DNA of 64,000 nt from Chrysomallon squamiferum. Its lineage: Eukaryota > Animalia > Mollusca. Below the pieces are notes generated by a model. It was not told where the DNA came from, made no database searches, and saw only the letters and a program-made list of their open reading frames with translations. The DNA is taken from assembly GCA_012295275.1 (NCBI GenBank), contig CM022665.1, forward strand, positions 30,628,001 to 30,692,000, written 5' to 3'. Made by a program: the position numbers and the translations under genes. How positions within the stretch are numbered: the stretch's first letter is position 1; every line of letters begins with the position of its first letter. Below, piece by piece: positions 5,888 through 60,096 of this stretch.

Positions 5888-8800
5888 TCATATATTTTCA
5901 GAATCATCAAGATTTTTAACAATCCATTGTTTTAGCAATTCAATTTCTTTTCTGTTAATTTCGTGGTAAAGATCTGGAAAAGTGTGAAACTGTCCATCAA
6001 CTCCCAGTGATTTCAATTTTTCAAAAGTATCTTTACCCCAGTCAAATAAAACTAAACTGTCTTCTTCTCCATGACACTGAAACAGTGGAGCAAGGTTCTT
6101 GTCATGCTCTTCAACACTCTGAAAAATGGATTTTTTTCAAAATGTATATAATTATTATGATCCAAAGATAATTACACCAATTAGATCTATCTATAACTAG
6201 TTATATCTCCGATTTAAGTTCAAGTAAGTTATTTGTGTTAGTTGTTAAAACTAACCTTGTATACTGATGATTCTTTCTGAAGAAAACTGGACAGTGCAAA
6301 TACACCAGCTATCTGTCTATGGAACTGATATGCTAGATGAAGAGCTAGGCATCCTCCCATAGAAAAACCACCTGCATTAATACAAATAACAAAGAAAATC
6401 ACCTGTAATAATATAAATAACATAGAAAAGCTACCTATAACAATAACAATAACACAGCAAACCCATCTGTAAAAATACAACATAGCAAATCCGCCTCTAT
6501 AAAAATATGTATGTCTATGAAGGTATACATAACATAAAATTTGTTTGTATTAAATTTAATTAAGTCTGATGATTGAATAATTACTAGAAAACTTAATAAA
6601 CATAACAAATATTGTATGGTTCTTAAATTAACTTGAATGGATATCAGATACATCAGGTTAAAATCAGGGTTCATAAATATTCAACAATAATAATAAATCT
6701 ATAAAAAATAATTTGTAAAATGTTTGAACATATATTTCTAATTCTGTTTTAAAAATAACTTTAAAAATAAGATAAGGAATAGACTAAATAAAACAATGCT
6801 GAATTCTTCAATCTCTTCAATTTATTTTTTGCCACAGTTAATCTGACTGGGTATTAGGATAAATTACAATAATTAAAAAATGGATTTTAACTACAAGCAT
6901 CAATTTTAAATATTTAGTGAACTGTAATTATATCAATTTTGTAAATAATGGTAAAAATTACCGATCATGATTCTGTGTTTAGGTATACCATTCCTGATCT
7001 CTGCTTCAATTAGACAGGAGAATTCTTCACATGTTGTTTTGACCGAGTCACTTTCAGCTGTGAATGGAGAAATCTGGTTTCTATCAAACCAAACAGTACT
7101 TACTGCACCTCCCATAGGTGTATACGGCCTGTCACACATAAGCAAATGTAAATTATCTGTATCATAAAATGTACAAACTACTAAAGAAAAATGGATTCGT
7201 TTTTTTTTTTTTTTATAGAAATTAGGGCTAAGCCAGATGCAGATATTCTTAAAATTTTTAAAATTATATTTTAATTACTTAACAAACAAAAAAACAACAA
7301 TAATAAATAAATAAATAAATATAATTTTTTTTTTTTTTTTTTTAAAACGGTAACAAAAAAATGGTTGAACGAAATCTATTGTGTTTTATCCTCTTTTAAT
7401 CACTAATTTAAAAAAGCCAATGAATGGAAATTGGATCTGTGATTAAGAAACTTACCTAGGAGGTGCTGTAGGAAAGATAACTCTAAGGTGTGGAAAAACA
7501 AATTCTTCTCCCAGGACACTATGTAACGACTGTCGAATTCCTGGTCCAGTATCTCCTAATCAAATTTAAAAAAAGGTCAAAGAATGCTGGTCATGATGAA
7601 CAACATAATTTAGCAAACTGTTACCCTATATACTGCTAATGTGTATACTATTTACTTGTGAATCATTTTAAAAACTACACATACAATTTTTCATTATATT
7701 AATTCATATTTGGCAGCATTCAACATGTAATTGTAAATTGATAATCTATTTGATACTTAAAGTATGTTCATCAAAAACAACACAGTGATTTTAGGTATGG
7801 CTACTACTGGCCAACTAACTTTAGGTGGTTATCTTATTTTGTTGTAAATAGTTACAGTACATAATGTAAAACAAATATTGATACAGTGCCTATAGTCAGT
7901 AGAAAAAAAAAAAAAAAAAAAAATTTAATTAGAAAAGATTTTTTTTTTAATTATTACACATTTGAAGATGCAAATCTGAAGTAAAATGATTATAATTTAT
8001 GAATGGCTATCTGACACACACACAGTGTATACACATTTTTGCTTATATGGACATCATCCATATACAAAGTGTGTCACATCTTTTTATATGTGAACAATAT
8101 AGATTATAAATAAAATTACTCAAATAATATATTATTTGGTTTTCCAAGCAGCTGATTTTACTTTTATAAAATAGATGAATTCTTTTGGATAAAGTATAAT
8201 CCTCATGCATAACATATATCTCCCCGAGTGATTTAATAATACTAATACAGCTAATTAAGTGAATTTTATTTGTTTGCAAATTCGGAATCCCATATTAAAT
8301 TAATTTTGGATTTTAATGAAAGTTCAGTTCGTCAGTTGACTGGACATTTCACAGAGATTGGTGTTTGTTTCTATGTCTGCATTTTTTTATACGTATCTAT
8401 TAAATAAATAATAAAATATGTGCAATGTAGATCTTTACATTTGATTTGTAAATTGTGAATAAAATGTGACAATGACTAAATGAGTAGGGGCTATGTTGCT
8501 TTTAATTTGTGTTGTTAGCACATGCATAAATCCATGAGATGGTTAACAAGCTTTGTCATAACATCATAGTCAAGATCTAAAACATGATTACAGATGTAAG
8601 GCACTAAGAAGTCCAACCATACTGGTAAGTACCAGTGAATCAACAACTAATTACCAGATAGCCAGAATGTCTGGTTTGAGATCTTGCCATAGTGTAATGG
8701 GAAAAACCAGGTTGCACTGTTCCCAGTCTGGTAGCCAGCTGAGCTTACCTGGATTACAGTTTGTTGAGGGTAATTAACCAACAGCTGAAACTGATCTGGT

Positions 8801-40502: not shown

Positions 40503-43500
40503 ATGGAAAAAAATAAGTTTGACACTGATGCCGGTTCCGACGACAAATCAGCTATGTACAGTGTGAATAATTCATCACCGAAGCCACAACAGCCCACCGA
40601 GGAAAATGGTTTGCTGATTACAGACAATCTTATCGAACTGAGTGAAAAAACGACGTTACAAACTGAATCATTGTCAATACAGAATATTAAGCCCGACAAG
40701 CTGACTGAACCAGAAATTGAAAGAAAATCTGGAACAGAAGCCAGGGCGAAAGTAAATTCAGTTTCTAGTACAAGCGACAGTTTATGGACAAGTGAAGCAA
40801 GTGTTTCTTACGATAAAAATATCAGTGAAGAAAAGAACGATATATCGAAATCACCGGCTTATTCGAATGACACGTCGCATTCTAACACAGAATCTAACAA
40901 CAAAAAGACAGAATTTGAAATAACAGCTCATACAGAAAATTCAGATGCAAACAAAAATGATGATTTCAGCATTAGTCAAACCAGCTCTGCCCATGCAGTG
41001 AGAAGTGATGATTCTGATAATATTATTTCAAAATGTGCAGGAGACGATGAATCAAACAAAGTAACCAAAAACATTTTGGATCCTAACCAGAAAGAAAATA
41101 CGTCTGTTTTAATTGTTGCTCCAGAGGAAATAAATCTAAATCCGAACAACAACAGCAATTGCAACATTTACAAAGCTGGACTTGATGAAAAAAATAACCA
41201 GGAAAATCATAATGGTATCATAGAATTAGCAGTAAACGATATTCCAAGTGTACAATTCTTTGAATCTCAACAGACAAATATTTTAACTGAATCTAATAAA
41301 GAAACTGTAAAAGAGAATCAAGGACAGAATACTACTTGGAGCAAAGAAAACTTAACTGCTGATCAAAGCAAAGACTTGTCTAATGTTTTAGACCCTGACA
41401 ATAGTGATATTAATACAACTAATAAATCAGACAGTAATACCGAAAATACTGAAGAACATAACGATAAAACAAAAGATACTAAACTCCATTTAGATATGGG
41501 TAAATCTGAGAGCAAAGACATCATTACTACATTAAATACCACTCTAATGGCTGAAGCAGAAAATGCAGATATACGTGATCAAAAAGACATGCCAGAACTG
41601 AAGTCAGTGGATGAAGTGTCGTCGTCTGCGAAACAGGTGTCATCAGCGCTCGAAATCTCAAAGGTCGCTACAGATGGAAATTTGGAAAAAGACAATGATG
41701 AAAAACAAAAGAAAAATGAAAAAGAACAAGCTGATAATAAAGAACAAATCACACTTGTTGATAACAAAGAACAAACTTCTACAAAAAATATTATTAAAAC
41801 AAACAAATCATCATCTGAAGGAAAACCAGTAGCAAGATCAAAGCCTCAAAGGGACAGAAAAACGAACACAGTTCGAGACGGAGCTTTTAGAACTACCGGC
41901 CGTAAATCTTCAACCCCTAGAAATATAAACACTAAAAGAGATGATCAAAAGACACTGGCTTCAAAAGACATGAGAAAAACAACCCCAGCTAGAAAAATTG
42001 GAATTGATCATTCTCGAGAAAAACTTGGACAGAATGCCGTAGTGAAAGACACAAAATTCCAGAAATCTTCATCCACTGATAAATCAACTCCTTTGACAGG
42101 TCGAATATCGGACGACTCAAAAAACAGAGAAACTGATGAAAAACAAGACTCCGAAAAGAAACCACTTTCAGAAAATAAGAATAAAGCAGAAGCAGAAATT
42201 CCTTCATCCACAAAAGAAAAGGACGCTGAGCAAAACAAATATGATATAAAGAAGAATAAAGATGAAAGTTCTCATCCTAACACTAGTCTTTCCGTTATTG
42301 ATGAAAATGAAGAAATTAAAAAGCCTCAGAAAGTGAAGTGGAACGAAAAAGTTATCATCCAGACAAAGAATAATGAAAAGAAACAAGTACCTAACGGGAA
42401 CGTTGTAACGAAAGAAAACCAAGAAAATGATAAACTACAAAAAGCTGAATCAGCTCTAGATGGCAAAGCGAACAATGTCATCGAAAAGAATCAAACTGTG
42501 GTGACAATCGAAGAAGGCAGTGCACACGAAAAAGACGGTGAAAAATTTAATCCAAAAGCTATTTTCGCTAAAGCGGTCTGGAACAAGGCTGGAAAAGATA
42601 AACCAGGGTCTATGGCTATGAATGGACCAACTAAGACACTGAGTAAGTCTTCCTTGGCAGTGCGAAGTGGTTCCACAGTTGAGGAAAAAGAGGAGAAATT
42701 ATCAGTAGAATCACGCAGAGATTCCACAAAACTTTCCCTCGATTCCGTCTCCCACAAATCTATAGACTATCGGAATGCTACAACCATTATTAATCCCATT
42801 CCAGAAGAAAAACCTCGATCTCTTCTGAACAGCAATGATTCGTGGATCCGCTCGGCAATTCCTTATCAGCCATTAAGCTTGTCGATTCTCTGTTTGTTCC
42901 TAAATGTTATTTTACCTGGATCGGGTTAGTGGTTGCTTATATTTTTGTTTCAGTAAATGTTCAAAGCAGGAAATGTGACGATAAAGTTGTTGTTTTTTTT
43001 ACATATATTTTGATTGATAACTTGTATCTATTTACACTGGTTAACAGAAAGCGAATATTGTAGTAATAAGATGAAATTAATTTTTCGAAAGGTTTACTAA
43101 AATAATCCGAGGGTCCTGATGTCACTACCCATATAAATTATCTTCCCATAGTTTCGTTATTTTTCACTATTTTCTAAACTTCTTATATAATTTCAGCAGT
43201 ATTTATAGTTCAGAATATAAAACGTTAAAGTGAACTTTTATTTATTATTATTATATTGTAGGAACTATAGTAAGCGGATTTTCAATTCTGTGCTGCGGGA
43301 AAACACGAGTCACCAGCAAAGATGACCACGTGCCTATTACGGTGTGTTTGAACATCTGGGTTGGAGTAGCTCAGTTCTTCACCATCACTTTCTGTCTTGT
43401 TGGATGGTTCTGGAGCATCGCCTGGGGAATCAAGATGATTATCCTTTCAGGTGAGTCAGATTGAAAATATGTTTTAATATATTATGTTCTTCTGTGGGTT

Positions 43501-48209: not shown

Positions 48210-51200
48210 TTAACCAATGATAGGAGTGGAAGAGAAGCACAACTTGAGGATGTATGGATTCTTTCCAGCTGGAATACAGAACATAAAACAACAAACTGAA
48301 TCACATTTATGACTGAAAATACATTCTCAACAAAAATTATTTTAATCATTTTTTATTATTTAAAAAAAAAAAAGTGTAAAACTGAAATAATCATTTAAAA
48401 TAACCTGGTAATTCTAAATTGTCAGATTGTTTTGAAAAGTATATACTAGCACATCATTTTCTATTGCAAACAGTTCATTTTTAAGACTGCTTTGTGAATC
48501 AACCTTTATGGAAAACAAAAATGCATTTTCTGAAATTTAATCCATACCTTCATGTGGAATTGGGGTATGATTAGTCAATGCAAGGGCTTCCATAGCATCA
48601 GATTTGTTCTCAAATTCAATTAGTCCAGTAGAACTTCTTTCGCCTGAAAGGAATGAATGAACATTTATTTAAAGACATAATACATCTTGTCTGAAGATGT
48701 TATTGGATCTAAAATTAAATTAATAGATTATATTAAAGCATTTTATACTTACTTTTTGAGGGGAACTGTTTGAATTTAATTGGTGGTTTGGCCTCAGCAG
48801 TTTCCATGATCTGAAATGAAATGTGAGAGAAAACTTCAAAGCATTCATTAACATTAAACAGAATTTAAAAAAAAAAATTTAAATTAATTATAAATGAACA
48901 AGCCAGATTTAGAAATAAAGAAAATAATAATAAAATAATTGAATGATAAAATATTTTTTGTCAGGCTTTTACAGGTATATACAGTGGTACCTTGACTTAC
49001 AAGGTTAAATTGTTCCATGATTGAGCTCGTAACTCAATTGTCTCGTATATAAAATCAATTTTCCCCAACTGAAATTAACTGAAATATCATTAGTTCATTT
49101 CAGCTCCACAAAATACACCCCATTTTTTTGAAACATGTTTTTAAATAAGAAAAATGTATTTATAAATGACAAATACTGTATGAAAAACAAAAGAAAAGAA
49201 ATAAATTGGTTTTCTAATGTGTATTAATCTTGGAGATATGACAATTTATTTTAAAGCCTTTGGCTGGAGTTACAGCCTTTATCGACTCCTTCTGCTTCAG
49301 TATGGTATATATCATAGAAGTACTACTCTCGTACTGCTTAGCCAAGTTGACTACACGCACACCTCACTCATGTTTTTCTATGAATTCATGCCTTAATTCA
49401 ATGGACATCATCTGCTTCTTCTTCTCAGCATTGTCCTTTGCACTCACAAAACAACACAGATGCTTCTGAAGCAAGGTAACCATGTGAATTTAACAAGTGA
49501 GATGTGGGATGCTAGCTGGATGTTGTGTTGTTTGTTGTGCCAATAAGCAGTGGCCTATATGAAGACTGCATGTAACTCAAAGCAAAAAATCGACTGGGCG
49601 ACTGCTTGTAACTAAAAAAAACTCTCAAGTTTAGCACTTGTAAGTCAAGGTACCATTGTATATAAATACCCCAGGACTAAAAGATACAAATGCTTTATAA
49701 CTTACTGTTCTGATCTCCTCATCTGTCAAATTTGGTGGAGCATTGAAATAATGTAGGACTTTGCCAGGAGCCTGGATTCGTGGACATCATTAAGGATAAT
49801 ACAAACTTCATTTAAACCAAAAAAATAGCTAAACATTAGCTATCTTAATATTATTACTAAGCTGATATCAATCATATTTTTAGGAAAAATAATTAATAAG
49901 ACATACCTTTCTAATAATATATCTAATTTTGTTACTTTAATAAAATCAAATTCTCCCCTGCCCCCAATGATACCAGATATACAGTTTTACCCTATACAGC
50001 AATATTTGTTGTATTAAAAATTAAATTTAGTTATATTTTCCAGAATTCCTGCTCTGTGATTTTTATCAAACTGAAACCAAAATGTAACAAATTACATTAT
50101 GATTACAACAGATAAATGTAGCAAAAGGATATTGTTTTTTTGAGCTGCCTCTGGATTAGTAAATCTGTTGTTTCGATTTCCCATGCAGTCCAGAAATGAG
50201 GAAGACCCATCAGGTAACTCATGTGGATTGTGAACATCTTGAAGATATGCTTGTTTTGAGTGACTGAAATTGTATATTGTTTGTCACTGTTTGGTGTCAA
50301 TATATATAATTTGTGTCCATTCATAGATTTCTGAATTAAACTAATTCTCACTGTGATAAACCTATCTTACAAGTTGTATAGGTAATTGTTGGAACATAAC
50401 TCTAAATATAAAATTATTAATATACAAAATGTATCTCAAATATCCTTAAAAAAATTTAAAAAAGAAAAAGATAAAAGAAATTAAATTTAAAACAAAATAA
50501 ATAAAAATTGTAGCAATACTTGTTATTATTACTTTTTTCTTTTTGTTTTGGTCTTTTTTGTAGTGACCCACACAGTCTGGTGTAAATAGAAAATATTCCA
50601 ATAATTATATTTTACCTGAGCTGCAGCTTGCTGTCAAAAAGAGTCATCTGATTTAGATTATGAATTAGACGTTCCACTGAGAGCTGGTCTCCCATCTGAA
50701 CCATGGCAGAACCTTCTTTACTCTTGAGAAACTTTATCTAGAATAACACCCAATTTACAAAACTATAACAAAATACACATTTACAAATGCATATGGTAAA
50801 ATGATTAAATAAATATATTAACTGCATATTTAATTTAAAAAGTAAAAAGCATGTTCTACTTAAGTACTGAAATGATGTCTTTAACAGCTTCACTCTAAAT
50901 ATTTACTAAAATTCAGTAGATTAACTAATTTTATTCTCTACTGTAAGAATAACCATCAATGTTTACTGTGTTTAAAAAATACTATATAATTTACCTTGAC
51001 AACATTGCCATACAGACAGAATAAATTGAAAAGTCTTTCACAATTCATTTTTTCCATGTTTAGTCCATATACCATGACAACTGAACTTTGCTGCTGGGAA
51101 GGTCCAGGTCCAGGGCCCATTCCCATATCTGGAAAAGGTGGTGGCCCATAAGGATCCTAAAAAGAAAATATATTTTTAGAACTTTCATTTAAAAAAACGC

Positions 51201-54145
51201 AATCTCACCACCTGATTATATTTTTGGCTGTATTTTTTGTTGTCTTTCCACCACCCTTTGTTCTTCCTTCTTGTCTATAAATGTAATTGGAAAACAAATG
51301 GTAATGCATTTTGTTCAAATATATATCCATTTTAGTTTTGTAAGCACATACCAGCATCTATAGTTATCATAATCACACTGTCAGCCACTTAAAATACTAA
51401 TACATACTTAATGAACTGAACATGGACACACACATGCATGCACGCACGCTTGTAGAAAGAAAAAAATTCCATAAGGTATTTACCAATAAACAATACTAAC
51501 TGCATGTTGGAAAGTTTCAAGACAACCAAACACAGCTGACTTACCACTGCATGATCAGCAAACCTATGGGGAGGTCCATACTGATCCTGGAACAAGTAAA
51601 ATCCAGGTTATTTGTTATCTTTACTGATTTCACCTACATACATCCCGTAACAATTACAAATACTTCTCATTCCCCCTTCCCCAATCTGAAATGGTTAAAT
51701 ACTCACTTCACCTTTCAAAAGTAATATTTGAAAAAGAATTTTCAGTTATAGCTGCTGTCAAAGTTAATTTAAAGAAAGGAATTCAATTACCATAACACCA
51801 GGCTTCCCTCCAAATCTGTCAGGTGGTCCACCAAATCCACGACCAGGACCTCCATATCCACCATCATAATCTTGCTCATAATAGGCTCCAGGACCATATC
51901 CTCCACCATGTCCAGAAATATCTGCAGGGCCATCTAACACGTGAAAATAACATTACATTCTTCTACTGCAGGCGGGGGATAAAACTATCATTAACTTTCT
52001 GTGGTTTCCTTATCTTTTTATGTGATTTGTGGAAAATAGATAGGAATTGCTGCTTATCAAGAAAATCTCCATGACCAAAATGCTATTTTTTCTGAAATTC
52101 ATTATCAGCCAGTACTGTTACAAAAAGAACTACTTGTTCAACATTATAAATTTACAGATACAATTTCAGTTTAACTAAAATACAAATTCAACTCCCTTAT
52201 AAAATAGTTATGGATTAATATTTTTGGTAATTGGAAGAAAAAAAAAGAAAAAAAAGGAATGTTCATTAAATCTAATATTATGGAGGGAAAATGGCCAGGA
52301 AGGAAACATTTGAAAATGAAATGTAACCTTTTATTCATTCATTCAAAAGCTCACAATCATGAGTATCAACAATTACAAATTTAAAAAAAAAAAATTAATA
52401 AAAAAAATTCAAACATCAAATAAAGAAAGAAAGAAGAAAAAAATTGTTTTGTTTATATATTTTTATGTATTCCCCCACCATTTGCAAAGAAATTGTATGA
52501 GCCTTCAATTTGTTTAAAGGAAAAAAATAAAAAAATAAAAAAAATAAAGGTTTTGTATTTTTCTTAAATACTGTACATTATTAAAAATATAGCTGTATAA
52601 AATAAAATTAGTATTTAAAATAAAGTTACACTATATACAGTAGTAATCAACACTTCCCCAATTTTGACTGAAGGTAAAAATGTGGCCAAAGCAAAATTGA
52701 TCATTATCAGCACTTATAAAATCCAGTGACAAAATAACTTCATGCACTGCACTGTAATCTACACCACACGATAAGCTAGCAGGTTAAAATAAAACAGTAG
52801 TCTCATTTGAAAACTACTTACTATATGGAGCAGGAGTTCCTCCCATTCTGGGATCAGCCAGCAGCGGCATGTTGCGATGACCCGCACCTTCCTTTCCTAA
52901 TCATAAAATTATTTAACAGTCAATCAACTTGAAACATTTGCTTACATCTACTAGTACTGCTGACATTAAAATCCAAACTGATACCCATGATCCAGGTATT
53001 TTTTTTTTTAATTAAAAAGTAAACATTTACTTCAAATTTTATTTTTTATGCCACCAGTTTTTGATGTTTCTTAAATTTAAAACCAAAAATATTCAAAAAG
53101 ATGCTTTCTAAATAGGCAGACTTTAATTTTCACCCTCCAAATTAGGTTCTCTGAATTCTGATCATTTACACTGAAATGAATTTAAGAATCAGCTTTTTAA
53201 AACAGCTAGTGAAGGTATTTTACAAGGAATATCGATACAAGATGTGAATAAAGCTAGCATGGACTTGCCGCTTAAAACTGCTAAAGATACTACCTGTTAA
53301 CATATCATTTTACATTACTAAATGTGGATGCAAGTTAAACCTTAGTAAGGAAGAATGTTTTTTTCCTTCACCAACTTTTTAAAAACAATTTTATAAATGC
53401 TTGAAATGATCAGTTCATTTTTATTCTTACTATCCATTAAAGCATTTCAAGTTCTTTCATGCAATTTGTTTTAGGGGATTTTGTTGTTTTGTTTTTAACT
53501 TTAAAACCTTTACACTGAAGCATTTCATATTTACTTTTCACATCCATATTTGTTACTGTGTCAAAAAAATACAACATCTTAAAACAGTATTTTAGGATAT
53601 CAATTGACTCCCACTGTACAGTTTGTTTTAAAAATCCATAAAATAAATGAAACTACCCTTGTCAAATAAACATGGCATAAATTCATTCATTCATTACAAA
53701 CAAACATAAGGGAGTGAAGAAAATTGATCATTAAATATTCTCAACAAGCACAGCAACTCTATCTATTCCACTGTGTCAGATGTTTAATCCTAATACTCTT
53801 AGTATAAACTTATTCTGTGAAACTGTGCAACTTGTATAATATTTAAACAAAAACCAACACTCTAAAAGAATATCTTGTTCAGTCCATGACAGATGAAAAA
53901 TATTTGTATATAAATGCAACACATCTTAATTTGTTTTTTGTTAATACATGACATTCCATTTATGAAAAGAAACAGTATAGTTTACATTATCTAAAAACAA
54001 AAAACAACAACATAACAAAAATGATTAAGTAAGAAATGTTCATAAACAAAAACTTGTTACAAGGAACTACAGAACAGCTGAAATTACATACTCATATCTT
54101 TAGTTCTTTTTATAGTTCGGACTATATATACACACAAACACGTAT

Positions 54146-54216
<71 letters not shown>

Positions 54217-54696
54217 CATATACACAGACACACACACACATATATATATACATATACACACACACACACATACATAGATATATATCTATACATACACATA
54301 TCTATACATATTTATATATATCTACATACACACACACGTATACATATATATATATATATATAGAATAAGAAAATAATATTCAAAATGTAATTTATTAGCA
54401 GAATAATTAATATACTGTTAAAAAAAAGAAAGGTTAATTGTGTTAAAATACAAAATCCATTGTTATGGGGTAAAAAATTCACATTATCTTCACAGCATCA
54501 ATAATAATTTTAAAGATTAAAAAATAAATAACTAAATAAACATCCTAAATACTGTAAAAATTATTAAACAAATCAGTCTTATTGTTACAAGTTCTGGGTT
54601 AGATTTCAGATAGATAATCTTTTTCAATAGCAGTCTGCTTAAATTTGGTTGTTTTTTCTCTTTTCTTTAGATTAAATCCAAAGGCAGGATATAACA

Positions 54697-54742
<46 letters not shown>

Positions 54743-57700
54743 CATACAGGTTACACACTGACTGTTGCAGAATGATAGAGTTGTCTACACATATTTGCTT
54801 GGAACTCTCCCTTTGGATAAGCGAATCATGTGCACATCGTCATGGCCACATTACACATGCCGCTTTAGCAACACAATACCATGCAGACACCAGCAGAAGA
54901 AATGTGTCTTCCATCTTGTGGAGCCAGCCCATGGGCCACGTCTGACCCTGCACAATGTACAATCACTTGATTAACAAAAAAAAAAAAAAAAAAAAAAACA
55001 ACCAGTCAACAATCTAGTATGAATGTCATGTGCCATGTTGTGTTGAAATGCACTGCACTAGGTAGTATTCACGTTCTTGTAACTGGCATGATGTATTTTG
55101 TTATTTCTTCTGTTACACAAATCCCAGTTTTGTAAGCTGTGTTATCTCTGGTTTCTATAAATGTTCCTGTATGTTGTGCATTTATTAAAAGATGGGTGGA
55201 TCACACTGTATATTCCTGTTTGTATGATTGCCATTTCTTCTGTTGTAAGAAATGTGTAATGTCTTCTGATCCCATGCTTTGTTTTTAAGGTAAGAGTTTG
55301 TTGTCTTCCATGTTAAATCCATGAAATGTTTGTGATGAACTACTTGTTCACTGATGGTTCCTTTTATTGGAAGAACTCCACATCAAAGATATCATGCAAC
55401 ACTATTTTCATTTTATATTTCATATGTATACATTGCATGAATGGAACTGAGCTTAACTTTACTGAAGTAAGAGTATTATATACAAACCATATACCCAGTG
55501 ACAAATATATGTGAAGAAAAATAAATTTTGCATGCATACCCATTACCCTGTGGCCTTGAGATTTTTTTTTTTTAATTTTAATTTCTCTGCAGCTATGAAG
55601 ATTGTAAAAAGCATAAAATAAATGCGAAAAAGCTGTTAACAATCATAATGAGAATAAATGTATGAATGAATGCATAGCTGCTTAATATACTATTCAAAGT
55701 GTGTAATAATTACTACCTTCTGATCCCATTAAACTGACTTGCTGTATTTCAAAAAGTTTTTTTTTTTTTTTTTTTTTTAGGAACACAGGTGTATGCATAG
55801 TAATTGCTGTAACTAATTACCTAGTCAATAAATAAGCTAGTAACATTGAAAAAATGGAGTACAAATACAGTACAAGCAAAACTAGTATTTATCACATTAA
55901 AAGGGATTTGTATTTTTATAATAAAATAACATAACTCAATGAATTGTTTAAAAAAAAAAAGGAAATAAAATAAATGACAACAGTAACCCCCAAGTTCATG
56001 AATACAAATTTTCCTTTAAAGTGACTGGTCTTGTTGCATGCATTTCATTATTAGTAATTCAATATATGAAGATTCATTTGCTTTTATTATTTTGTGGTGA
56101 CAAAAAAAAAAAAAAAAAAAAAAAAATTGAAATATGCCTAAAAGGTTGTGTCAAAACTTCCATGATTTGCAAGAAAGGAGGATAATTATAATGGATTAAT
56201 GAAAAACTACGTATGTAAATACATTTTTTTGCAGATAAAATATGTGTGTGTTTAAAATGTTCACAACATACATGTGATTGGTAAATTCATGGTTCACTGC
56301 AGAATGTGTTGAGTGTTTTTATGCTGGATTTTGTTTTGTGTGTGACAAATTAAATGTCAATTTTCTCACAACTTTATAAATTTAATTTTATAATATTCAA
56401 AATTTTAATGGCAGTTTTAAAATATTAAGTTTATAAGCATTTACTTTTAAGTATTAAATATATTCAGTACCAAGCTGAAAAATTAAACCAATTTAATAAT
56501 GAAAATTTAACTTGAATGCAAGAAAATTTAAGCTTTTATAAATATTTTAATGATTAAAATAATTAAATTTCAATGGCTGAAAAATACAAAAAGAAAATGC
56601 ATATTATAAATATCTTACCTAGGCTTGTATTTGTATAGTCTCTGCTTTCTGAATCATTTCTTACAACATTCAGTCTTGTTGGCTACAAATAAACAAATAA
56701 TTACATCTATGCTAAAATATGATTCTAGTGTTACTTCTAGTTTATCCAACACACAACATAAAACTGAAGGCCAATAATCATCTCTGCAGTGTGCTCTAAG
56801 TGTTAATTGCAGTGTGAATTAAATGAATACTAGCTTAATACACACTGAGTTGAAGGTTCAATCATTATCAGCTACTTCCCATTCTATGTAATGATTAGCA
56901 TGTTACTTATCAATAGCTATGATATGTAGATATAAAAGAAACATTGCTACTAATCAATCAATACCAACTTGTAACTTAATATGAAAATGTCTTAAAGTAG
57001 TATTATTTTATCTACAAACCTTAGCATATTCAATTTTCAATGTGCAGCATCCAGAATAGATGTCTGCTCCATTTAAAGACTGCTTGGCTCTTTTTGCTGA
57101 TTCAATACTATCAAATCTTTGAAGTTTTAAGGATAATCACAAGTTTTACATCAAATTTTAATCTTAAAAACTGAAAGCCACACTTTAACAGATATTATAA
57201 ACCACAAAGAGAATTGCATACAAATTTCAGAAAGGATAATGCTTTTTATAAAACAGTTTTACTTAGAAACACAAGGCCTGACATCAGTGCTCTAGTATAC
57301 CTATTTGTAAATTATTTCCACTACAATTTTGTAATTAACAGAATTCATTGTTTAAAATGTACTAGTTTTCAATAGGTTTCTTTTTAAATACTTATCTTAA
57401 TGTGAACAAAAATTAAAAAATTAAAATGTTTCAATAAAATTATATTTGTGTTCAACTTAGTTTCATCACATATAATCAACTGATTAATAATTCAGAGTTA
57501 ACTAATTTCAGTGAATTAATAGTATAATTTAAAATCCATCTACAATGGGCTACAAGGATACTCGACCATAGCCTGGACACCATTCTTTTTGAAGATGACA
57601 ATACGCAAAACCTGACCATATGCCACTGTAATTGTGTGCATGACATCCTAAAAAGTTAAAATAATGAAATATTAATACCAAAATAATACTGAATTCATAT

Positions 57701-59949
57701 TCTGTTTCAGTAATCATGTCATTTTAGAAGTGAGCAAAATGAAACAAAATTTAAACATCTGAAATAAAAACAATGTATAAAGAACAATGAACTTACGACT
57801 GTGATAGGGTACTGTGGATTCAGGATTGTGAACAAAAGAATATGATTTGCAGGTCTTGTATCTTCAGGATCTCTGGTAAAAAAAAAAAAAAATGAAAGTT
57901 TAAAAATAATAATTTGAACATTTCAGTAAAGTATCAAATGCAGGAAAATTTATTTAAACAAAATTACACATCAGTGTTATTTATCATCTGCAGTTTTTTT
58001 TCTCTTTTTTTTTAAAAATTATTGTTCATGCATTGTACTTGTTGATCTGCATATTATTTTTATTTTGAAAATAATACTTTATCAGGTTATGAAAACTGAA
58101 AAATCATTTGCTGACAAAAAAAACACACACTAAATTGCCCAGTGTTAAACAACAAATTCTTGTATGCATTACAAGTTATTTTGTTTGTGTTTTTTTTTTT
58201 TTTAAGCTGAAATAAAAAAGTTATACCCGGGTCTCTGTATCTTTTGACTTGTAGAATAATTAAAAAATGCTGGCTGGCCTGCAACATATATTGAATCGGT
58301 CTGTGAAAGAAAAAAATGAAAAAAATGAAAAGAGTAAAATAAATGAATGCATCATAAAGTGTTTAATTATACTTAAAAGGTAAATGGTATTTGAAATCAA
58401 AAACACTATCATGTCTGTACTACAACACTGAAGAAAACATGAAAACCACAGGTGATTTATTTTAATTTTAAAAAAGCATTTCTGTATTTCATTTTACAGT
58501 ACAAGTAAAAATGATAAATCCACAATAAAAATTAATATATTCTTTACTGTGTTAAAAAACAGCACAAGTTATTATTCTGAATTTATGGGATGGGGGATTT
58601 TTAATTACTTTAAGAAACTCTCAATGTTACTGAAACAAAATATGATTTTCAAAGAAATCAGTAAAAACTTACCTGGCAGTAATTCACACAATTCCTTGCA
58701 CCACTAATATCCTGTTAATAAAAATATTGTTACAAAATATTTTAAAAATCATAAAGCCTGAAATTTCATTTAACAAAAATATAATTTACTGTCACAATAT
58801 AACAAAAATTATTTAATTATTTAACAAACAATTAAGCAGTTGAAAAGGCACCATTATTTTAAACTACCAGTCCAATAGTCACTTTCACCAAAATTTCTGT
58901 ACATTTTTCAAAATTATAACTTTACCTCAAATTCAATAAGTGCTTGGCGTTTTCTGGGCATCATGATGACATCTCTGCAATAAAGAAAAGTCACATTTTG
59001 TGGACTTAATTCCAGACAAATATTACACAAAGGAAGCCAATGCTTTAAATTTAAAATGTTCAATACCAGACTAAGTTTTGAAATCACACTTGTATATGTA
59101 AAAATATCTAACAGGCTTCTCCTTTTAAACTATTACTATCTCAAACAAAATTCAAAACAGTTACCTCACAGTCCCAAAATTTTGGACAGCCTCCACAAGA
59201 TCCCTTTCAATTGCATGTTCAGACAGACTCCGTACATGGATTACTGGTGAAGGTGAAGGTTTGTGTGGGTCATCAAATTTATCCTGCTTAAAAACAGAAT
59301 TAGATATTTATGCATACAATTTCATGGCTACACAAATGGATCACATAAACAATCCACTAAGCACAAAATAACTTTTTAAGTATCTTCTTGAAAAAATTCA
59401 TCCAAAATATTTTCGTTTCGTTAATATATTCTGATCATTTTTTGGGGTAAATTAAACTATATATGATATAATAATATTAGTTGCCTTTAAAATTACGTTT
59501 AAATTTTAACGGTAAATCAGTGAACGTTTTTTTACATTAATGTGATTATTCATTTAAATTTTAACAGCCGATGGTGTGTTTTTTGGGGGGTGTTTTATAC
59601 GTTTCTTACACACTGAAGAAAACAACGAATTTTAGGTTTCAATATATATAAATATATGAATTAAGTTTCGAATGAAGGGTAACATTTAGATTATCCACGT
59701 GCATTAGAATTTAGACTGGCCTTTTTAAAAATTACAAAATCAGCAACCGGTCTATATTACTTGTATTGGGAAAACAAATTGAAAGAAAATAACTGCAATA
59801 ACACATATTTAATTTGCACATTACAGATACAAATAGTCTCTGCATGTAGAAGAATGCAGTTCAATAACTATTAGTATTACCCTTGTTCCTATTCCGTGCA
59901 TTCCGTCGTCAGTTCTTTGTCTCTTGGAAAGATGACCGTCATACGCCAT
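48210..59949 (-). CDS. HNRNPL: Heterogeneous nuclear ribonucleoprotein L (hnRNP L/LL pro-orthologue, smooth-like; four RRMs)
   Basis: Exons 59949-59881, 59283-59165, 58974-58926, 58711-58673, 58300-58227, 57872-57797, 57647-57562, 57116-57020, 56682-56619, 52896-52822, 51933-51791, 51586-51545, 51156-50995, 50737-50616, 50263-50133, 49779-49706, 48810-48753, 48643-48548, 48268-48210 join in frame. Motifs SPVIHVRSL, AFFNYSTSQKIQRP, NHILLFTILNPQYPITVDV, LNGADIYSGCCTLKIEYAKPTRLNV, KNRIQAPGKVLHYFNAPP and NPYILKLCFS. Confidence 0.93.
48982..49658 (-). mobile_element. Non-autonomous Tigger/pogo-like element, copy B (same family as copy A, opposite orientation), in an hnRNP L intron
   Basis: 22-bp TIRs CAGTGGTACCTTGACTTACAAG / CTTGTAAGTCAAGGTACCATTG (1 mismatch). 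TA target duplication on both sides. Same truncated HTH fragment as copy A. Confidence 0.92.
49780..50132 (-). other. U12-type AT-AC intron in hnRNP L
   Basis: 5' end ATATCCTTT, branch TTATCCTTAAT and 3' end GTCCAC. Removal restores the conserved KN-R-IQAP frame. Confidence 0.92.
54120..54362. repeat. Compound (TA)/(CA) microsatellite, read as UG/UA-rich in the hnRNP L pre-mRNA
   Basis: Directly visible; accounts for the spurious ORFs 54036-54368 and 54084-54299. Confidence 0.9.
54880..54947 (-). other. Candidate 68-nt frameshifting (poison) cassette exon of hnRNP L
   Basis: Minus strand reads (T)n..TTAAT..TTGTGCAG|GGTCAGACG...TCTGCATG|GTATTG. It is a GC-rich island in an AT-rich intron, and its length is not a multiple of 3 between two phase-1 junctions. 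Confidence 0.65.
55020..55350 (-). promoter_or_regulatory. ACA-rich intronic cluster, putative hnRNP L binding platform upstream of the candidate poison exon
   Basis: About 30 ACA triplets on the transcript strand in ~330 nt by hand count, against about 3 on the opposite strand. Confidence 0.6.
57117..57561 (-). other. U12-type GT-AG intron in hnRNP L
   Basis: 5' end GTATCCTTG. Branch TTATCCTTAA lies ~10 nt before the AG with no polypyrimidine tract. The intron splits AMVE/FD in RRM2. Confidence 0.9.
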
Positions 59950-60096
59950 TTTCTTTCTATGCACAATAGAGGGCGCATACTCGGTATATTCCGGTTAACG
60001 ATTAACGAATTCAGCCGAATATGAAAAACAAAGAAGTACGAAAAAGAACATTAGGGCCAGTCTGAACATCTCTAATCACAAAGAGAAAAGTTTATT

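Follow-up and report, generated by a model that had tools for sequence, protein, structure and literature searches.

In the scaly-foot snail relative of the vertebrate hnRNP L gene, that of Chrysomallon squamiferum, exon 9 is spliced to a hidden acceptor that lies within intron 9. This acceptor is real, because RNA contigs from three of four runs join exon 9 to it, at position 54947 of the window, by which we mean the whole stretch of 64,000 nucleotides analysed here (GCA_012295275.1, contig CM022665.1, positions 30,628,001 to 30,692,000). The explanation that we favour, giving it about an even chance, is an unproductive exon within the exon-6A intron: hnRNP L itself would drive use of the acceptor, most transcripts would read through into a terminal exon, and a minority spliced as a cassette would be hidden by nonsense-mediated decay (NMD). 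In position and anatomy the hidden exon works like vertebrate exon 6A, and it is a candidate member of that class.

Exon 6A of hnRNP L is a textbook autoregulatory poison exon, and the literature accounts that we found cover mammals only. In the full-text literature searched, from which subscription journals are largely missing, we found neither this exon nor autoregulation by hnRNP L described for an invertebrate.

The hnRNP L gene and its surroundings

All positions below are those of the window, and the features discussed are collected in Table 1. The initial annotation, made from the letters alone, had named hnRNP L as the host gene, and this is confirmed by the gene model, by the protein of Gigantopelta aegis (XP_041352711.1; 524 of 544 residues identical, 96%) and by a Pfam search on that G. 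aegis protein, which found the four RRMs. Identity falls to 73% for a Haliotis orthologue and 51% for a mammalian one. RNA contigs cover most junctions of exons 2-9, and the solved RRM2 construct 2mqm corresponds to residues 111-228 on the G. aegis protein.

Table 1 Features of the hnRNP L locus discussed in the text (a slash marks an exon end)
Feature	Positions	Strand	Description	Basis or status
hnRNP L gene	48210..59949	-	544 aa with four RRMs, from 19 coding exons	gene model
Exon 9	56619..56682	-	PTRLNV...DYTNTSL/G, end of extended RRM2	
Intron 9	52897..56618	-	3722 nt, phase 1	counterpart of vertebrate exon-6A intron
CA-rich cluster	55020..55355	-	31 ACA, ~50 CA; 73-400 nt upstream of hidden acceptor	candidate hnRNP L site
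3' splice region	54948..54998	-	U23 tract 54998-54976, CAG acceptor (AG 54949-54948)	used in X1, X2, X3
Exon core	54880..54947	-	68 nt, GC-rich; donor ATG/GTATTG	acceptor used in RNA; donor predicted
3' extension	54748..54879	-	GC 0.43; ends at donor-like CCT/GTATGT, then U43 (54740-54698)	read in X1
AATAAA	54391..54396	-	first behind hidden exon; candidate intronic poly(A) signal	sequence match
Exon 10	52822..52896	-	cassette of 75 nt, in frame; either spliced to exon 9 or left out	RNA contigs
Frameshift stop	51060..51062	-	TAA in exon 13, for 68-nt cassette form	in silico

Two hnRNP L introns, 57561-57117 and 50132-49780 on the minus strand, are of the U12 type (minor spliceosome). One is a GT-AG intron with a GTATCCTT donor and one an AT-AC intron with a ATATCCTT donor; both contain a TCCTTAA branch motif, and splicing of the first (57561-57117) is visible in the RNA contigs. 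Elsewhere in the window, exons of a phospholipase/carboxylesterase-family gene lie at 6238-7274 on the minus strand (Pfam Abhydrolase_2, E 5.6e-06), and a low-complexity open frame of 808 codons without a Pfam match runs along the plus strand at 40503-42929. It is on the strand opposite to hnRNP L and ends some 5 kb away from the stop codon of that gene.

A hidden 68-nt segment in intron 9

Intron 9 is the longest of the 18 hnRNP L introns, as the initial annotation had stated, and the segment that it singled out there has every part ascribed to it, namely 68 GC-rich nucleotides, a poly-U tract, a CAG acceptor and a weak ATG/GTATTG donor. The GC content of the segment is 0.56 versus 0.27 for intron 9, and it is here that the most GC-rich 68-nt stretches of the intron fall. 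Scored with a position weight matrix (PWM) built from 16 major introns of this gene, both splice sites are weak: the donor at 54880 reaches 5.2 (rank 11 of 229 GT sites) and the acceptor at 54947 reaches 4.6 (rank 12 of 164 AG sites). The start of the hidden exon, G/GTCAGA (54947-54941), is itself donor-like and takes rank 3 of 229 in intron 9 by the same matrix; re-splicing at this candidate donor would leave one extra base.

Inclusion of the 68 nt as a cassette is predicted to shift the frame to a TAA that lies 65 nt ahead of the next junction, just as had been proposed, with five further junctions behind it. In silico this outcome is unchanged by skipping of exons 10 and 12, and the predicted stop, which precedes a downstream junction by over 50 nt, is in an NMD configuration. 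An Rfam search of intron 9 returned seven matches, all far under the gathering score and all on simple repeats; by this measure the intron therefore appears to hold no snoRNA or other known RNA. Folding of 54975-54745 pointed to no special structure (z = 0.30), and neither the CA cluster nor the hidden exon has repeat copies inside the 64-kb window.

CA-rich sequence ahead of the hidden acceptor

The initial annotation had placed about 30 ACA triplets in some 330 nt before the segment. Our count is 31 ACA versus 3 TGT in the 331 nt of 55350-55020, a number that none of 300 dinucleotide shuffles of intron 9 reaches (best 330-nt stretch per shuffle, mean 15.3 ACA, maximum 22). With simple CA repeats masked, this is also the top minus-strand ACA stretch of the 64 kb. 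For a set of four CA tetramers, which reportedly goes back to SELEX work on hnRNP L, the count of the cluster was reached in one of 300 such shuffles. When the dinucleotides of 55350-55020 are shuffled locally, 182 of 1000 shuffles reach 31 ACA. Because the excess of CA dinucleotides accounts for the ACA count, the stretch is a CA-rich cluster and no special ACA code. It is likely a binding region of hnRNP L. A second, weaker CA-rich patch lies toward the 5' end of the intron (56425-56030, minus strand), with 19 ACA and 41 CA per 330 nt.

Use of the hidden acceptor in RNA

The RNA data are contigs of four RNA runs from one study (X1-X4), together with a further set of unknown kind from a second study (X5). 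Contigs were placed on 54745-59990 (X1-X4) and on 51450-54135 (X1-X3); on the latter, X5 gave foreign short matches only. The contig records are filtered and rare forms are dropped from them, their depth is unable to rank parts of a gene, and the presence of a form is informative while its absence is not. Joints with a side of fewer than 30 letters may be spurious.

Three of the four RNA runs of the one study, namely X1, X2 and X3, join exon 9 to the hidden acceptor at 56619>54947, and the ends of this junction are those of splice sites; the junction was not seen in the X4 contigs. This is the upstream joint for which the initial annotation had recommended a search. Its short side measures 27 letters plus three shared ones, slightly below the 30-letter caution length; in X1, X2 and X3 alike the joint falls on the predicted base, with hnRNP L exon 9 on the opposite side. 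The remaining partners of the exon 9 donor in the contigs are exon 10 and exon 11.

Contig depth at 56619>54947 is 61.8, 30.5 and 13.1 in X1, X2 and X3, versus 205, 79 and 71 at the constitutive joint of exons 8 and 9. Expressed as a share of exon 9 donor use, this corresponds to about 38%, 37% and 24%, rough figures from a depth comparison that itself calls for caution and that, for X1, involves subtraction for one further contig.

The transcript beyond the hidden exon

Only the acceptor side of the 68-nt poison cassette proposed initially is thus seen in RNA. Its donor joint, 54880>52896, occurs in none of the X1-X4 contigs, which drop rare forms and include no NMD-inhibited run, and no loose end at 54880 is present among the rows listed for the contigs on 54745-59990. 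In X1-X3 the letters ahead of exon 10 are those of exon 9 only, and ahead of exon 11 stand exon 9 or exon 10. One X2 contig spans exons 9, 10 and 11, and single contigs from exon 11 extend about 1 kb onward in X1-X3.

Some variation is found among these downstream exons. Contigs of X2 and X3 omit exon 10, which bears a PLL motif, without a change of frame, and a segment matching this exon is absent from a Physella isoform (P0352) and a Littorina isoform (P0315). Exon 12 (42 nt, 51586-51545) is left out of the main contig in X1-X3, with a loose end at 51790 that reads exon 13; isoform X5 of the G. aegis protein likewise lacks exon 12.

The form visible in X1 runs past the 54880 donor for about 130 nt and across an in-frame TAA. 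That the RNA continues beyond the donor follows from the mean X1 depth of 64.2 over the bin 54745-54919, because cover of the 40 exon bases alone would require a depth of 281, more than the constitutive upstream contig itself has (205). By one-contig arithmetic the X1 contig ends at 54747-54751. X2-X4 are without cover at 54745-54919, an uninformative hole that possibly reflects filtered records. The TAA of the read-through form, at 54867-54865, predicts a 251-aa RRM1-RRM2 protein that ends right behind the extended RRM2.

Farther on, the distal intron (52870-54040) has depths of 12.4, 7.3 and 4.8 in X1, X2 and X3, versus 13.7, 5.9 and 6.1 in the intron upstream of the acceptor. This is background, far under the depth of the 56619>54947 junction as far as contig depth, a poor measure, can tell, and the contigs do not distinguish DNA from pre-mRNA as its source. 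In qualitative terms the upstream junction stands far above the downstream one on the contigs. If the depths are comparable, the RNAs that carry the junction end between about 54750 and 54040. The sole canonical polyadenylation signal in that interval is the AATAAA at 54396, and a TA/TG repeat (54362-54143) begins about 30 nt after it. Neither a poly(A) tail nor a 3' end is present in the RNA contigs on 54745-59990 and 51450-54135. An A-rich stretch at 54673-54643, with up to 16 A in 20, could allow internal priming on intron-retaining RNA and so mimic an end.

Counterparts in vertebrates and other lineages

In 2009, Rossbach et al. reportedly described the poison exon 6A of human HNRNPL together with a CA-rich enhancer in the intron upstream of it. 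Binding of hnRNP L just upstream of exon 6A is reported to promote inclusion of the exon (PMC8652244, PMC7547044, PMC6884704). The human exon measures 70 nt and is mostly hidden unless NMD is blocked, with a dPSI of +0.64 on loss of UPF1 and +0.48 on loss of SMG6 (PMC6547761, Table 1). An unseen 54880 joint in contigs that drop rare forms therefore does not refute the snail cassette.

The snail intron sits in the same place as the human one, which agrees with the initial claim: it follows 673 nt of coding sequence, in phase 1, after the RRM2/DYT exon, and vertebrate 6A tails, known on this side from proteins, likewise start in phase 1 after the DYT motif. Four tetrapod-type proteins among the 120 of 286 short homologues listed have a 6A-type tail directly after DYTNPNLSGQG, and these vertebrate tails begin at the same split Gly that aligns with the end of snail exon 9. 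Together with the 70-nt length, the tail peptides imply a phase-1 exon with a G-N-T-C start and an ATG/GT end. The snail 68-nt exon has the same start and the same end, and in one contig protein (P0023) there are 22 codons to M/V, exactly like the snail frame. The window contains 6155 AG sites, of which 46 show the G-N-T-C start and 76 an ATG/GT end 65-75 nt on; both features coincide at one site, that at 54947. Chance would give 0.57 such coincidences anywhere in the window, and the pattern was chosen post hoc. The interior of the exon was compared with nine vertebrate, fly and bug tail peptides through degenerate back-translation, and none scored above shuffles (21-123 of 150 shuffles were as good).

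In Drosophila, 15 annotated isoforms from 13 species leave the frame directly after DYTL[ST]T; the gene is the hnRNP L orthologue that we take to be smooth. Among the Drosophila proteins P0046-P0070 the truncating exon after this motif is read in more than one frame, which suggests a constraint on RNA and not on protein. No truncated mollusc isoform is present in the listed members (up to 15 each) of 11 clusters, nor among the 120 listed short homologues except for one plain read-through model. The short invertebrate matches P0008, P0016 and P0033, which have the appearance of gene models extended into intron sequence, were not counted, and P0019 (Halyomorpha isoform X3, with a short tail) is a lead only.

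A search with the 30-residue tail peptide of the snail exon gave two matches, both to repetitive unrelated proteins, and by this comparison the peptide is not conserved as protein. A metagenome scan yielded 80 of 276 relatives, and none of these 80 shows the orthologous intron; about 50 of them have the DYT motif in a continuous frame (spliced transcripts or intron-less copies) and the rest are without a match to the motif. Short blastn of 55400-54745 against these 80 relatives gave matches of 14-15 nt only.

Possible mechanism and alternative explanations

The favoured explanation begins with what the RNA contigs record, the splicing of exon 9 to 54947, and continues with read-through past 54880 to about 54750, which is seen in run X1 only. 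From the contig depths, termination would follow between about 54750 and 54040, probably at the AATAAA at 54396. By parallel with vertebrates, a minority of the RNAs would instead be spliced at 54880 and removed by NMD. At the donor, which is as weak as the acceptor, most of the surviving transcripts would fail to splice and would undergo cleavage within the intron. Both routes, intronic cleavage and NMD, would lower the amount of full-length hnRNP L. Activation of the acceptor by hnRNP L through the CA cluster would presumably act as a negative feedback, the sign of the effect being part of this presumption. Against such activation, binding of hnRNP L upstream of cassette exons is reported to repress them more often (PMC7547044). 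We give about even odds to a common ancestry of this exon and vertebrate 6A. The broadest form of the idea, an exon-6A switch of bilaterian age whose feedback diverts between a quarter and a third of the transcripts into an NMD-escaping two-RRM form, is tentative and on the unlikely side.

The downstream RNA could also be read as the trace of a plain cassette of the exon-6A type that is destroyed by NMD, with the contigs representing a half-spliced nuclear intermediate shortened by library bias, either through internal priming or at the U43 run or the TA/TG repeat. A retained intron ought to carry the depth of the junction, however, and 52870-54040 is at background in X1-X3, subject to the caveat on depth; nor does the A21 run farther upstream produce a comparable X1 peak (8.5 versus 4.4). 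We regard this reading as unlikely, if still worth serious consideration. Another way to account for the X1 cover is an exon of 200 nt, 54947-54748, with CCT/GTATGT as its donor and U43 as a downstream enhancer, which would be an NMD target when spliced. The in-exon TAA lies 117 nt before the 54748 junction, arithmetic puts the end of the X1 contig at about 54747-54751, and GC is elevated up to 54748 and lower beyond it, all of which would suit such an exon. Yet contig breaks right before homopolymers are common, no contig links the letters of this exon to exon 10 or 11 in X1-X3, CCT/GTATGT falls outside the top 25 of 229 donors by PWM, and the match to the vertebrate exon length is lost, so that the 200-nt exon appears very improbable.

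It is improbable, too, that the exon has neither 6A homology nor a part in feedback and is instead an independently gained last exon encoding the 251-aa RRM1-RRM2 isoform, or a cryptic exon repressed by hnRNP L. Such an origin would fit the missing similarity of the interior to known tails, the repeated appearance of unproductive events in splicing-factor genes (PMC4379411) and the reported tendency of upstream CA elements, or upstream hnRNP L binding, to repress cassette exons more often than not (PMC7547044). The truncation moreover coincides with the end point of the solved RRM2 construct, and the product could fold. That the exon shares its intron and its ends with 6A, is of similar length and has a CA cluster upstream argues, taken together, against independence, as does a tail peptide without protein conservation. 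Under the favoured explanation of an unproductive, mostly read-through exon, the abundance of the read-through form raises a question for vertebrates too, namely whether NMD acts alone or together with premature 3'-end formation, and whether a truncated RRM1-RRM2 protein contributes.

Comparison with known systems

The closest parallel is human exon 6A. The genes are orthologous, the exon lies in the same phase-1 intron after the DYT motif, it is short and non-triplet in both (68 nt in the snail, 70 nt in human) with matching ends, a CA-rich region lies directly upstream, and the protein is truncated after RRM2. The two differ in that the interior of the snail exon has no detectable similarity to 6A, that its 68-nt form is without an in-exon stop whereas the vertebrate tails mostly stop within the exon, and that the product seen in the snail is abundant and carries a 3' extension. 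In human, binding, feedback and NMD have been demonstrated, while the snail exon is known from sequence and RNA contigs. The Drosophila isoforms resemble the snail form in deviating after DYTL[ST]T and stopping about 25-120 residues on, but their tails are longer, occur in several frames and have no similarity to the snail exon, and they are known from automatic protein annotation only.

Poison exons that are extended into terminal exons by intronic polyadenylation form a described class (PMC13187750). The snail exon is like this class in having the upstream junction present and the downstream junction unseen, a 3' extension, a stop codon, an apparent drop of contig depth in the downstream intron and a candidate AATAAA. 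However, that study deals with human exons that contain a stop and sets frameshift exons aside, and the snail AATAAA at 54396 is a sequence match, a candidate only. In its main text hnRNPL appears solely as an NMD-protecting factor; the supplements cover 451 exons, possibly with HNRNPL among them.

That a poison exon may be ancient is already known from SRSF5 and SMNDC1, since deep conservation of unproductive splicing is reported for SRSF5 (PMC4379411) and SMNDC1/SPF30 (PMC11357089). These are other genes, and conservation is demonstrated there, whereas here it is approached through position, exon ends and motif content. They share with the present case the idea that an autoregulatory unproductive event is able to persist across very distant lineages, and use of a hidden exon in the same intron by a mollusc, with matching ends and a CA cluster of its own, would place hnRNP L among the few splicing-factor loops that predate the split of protostomes and deuterostomes.
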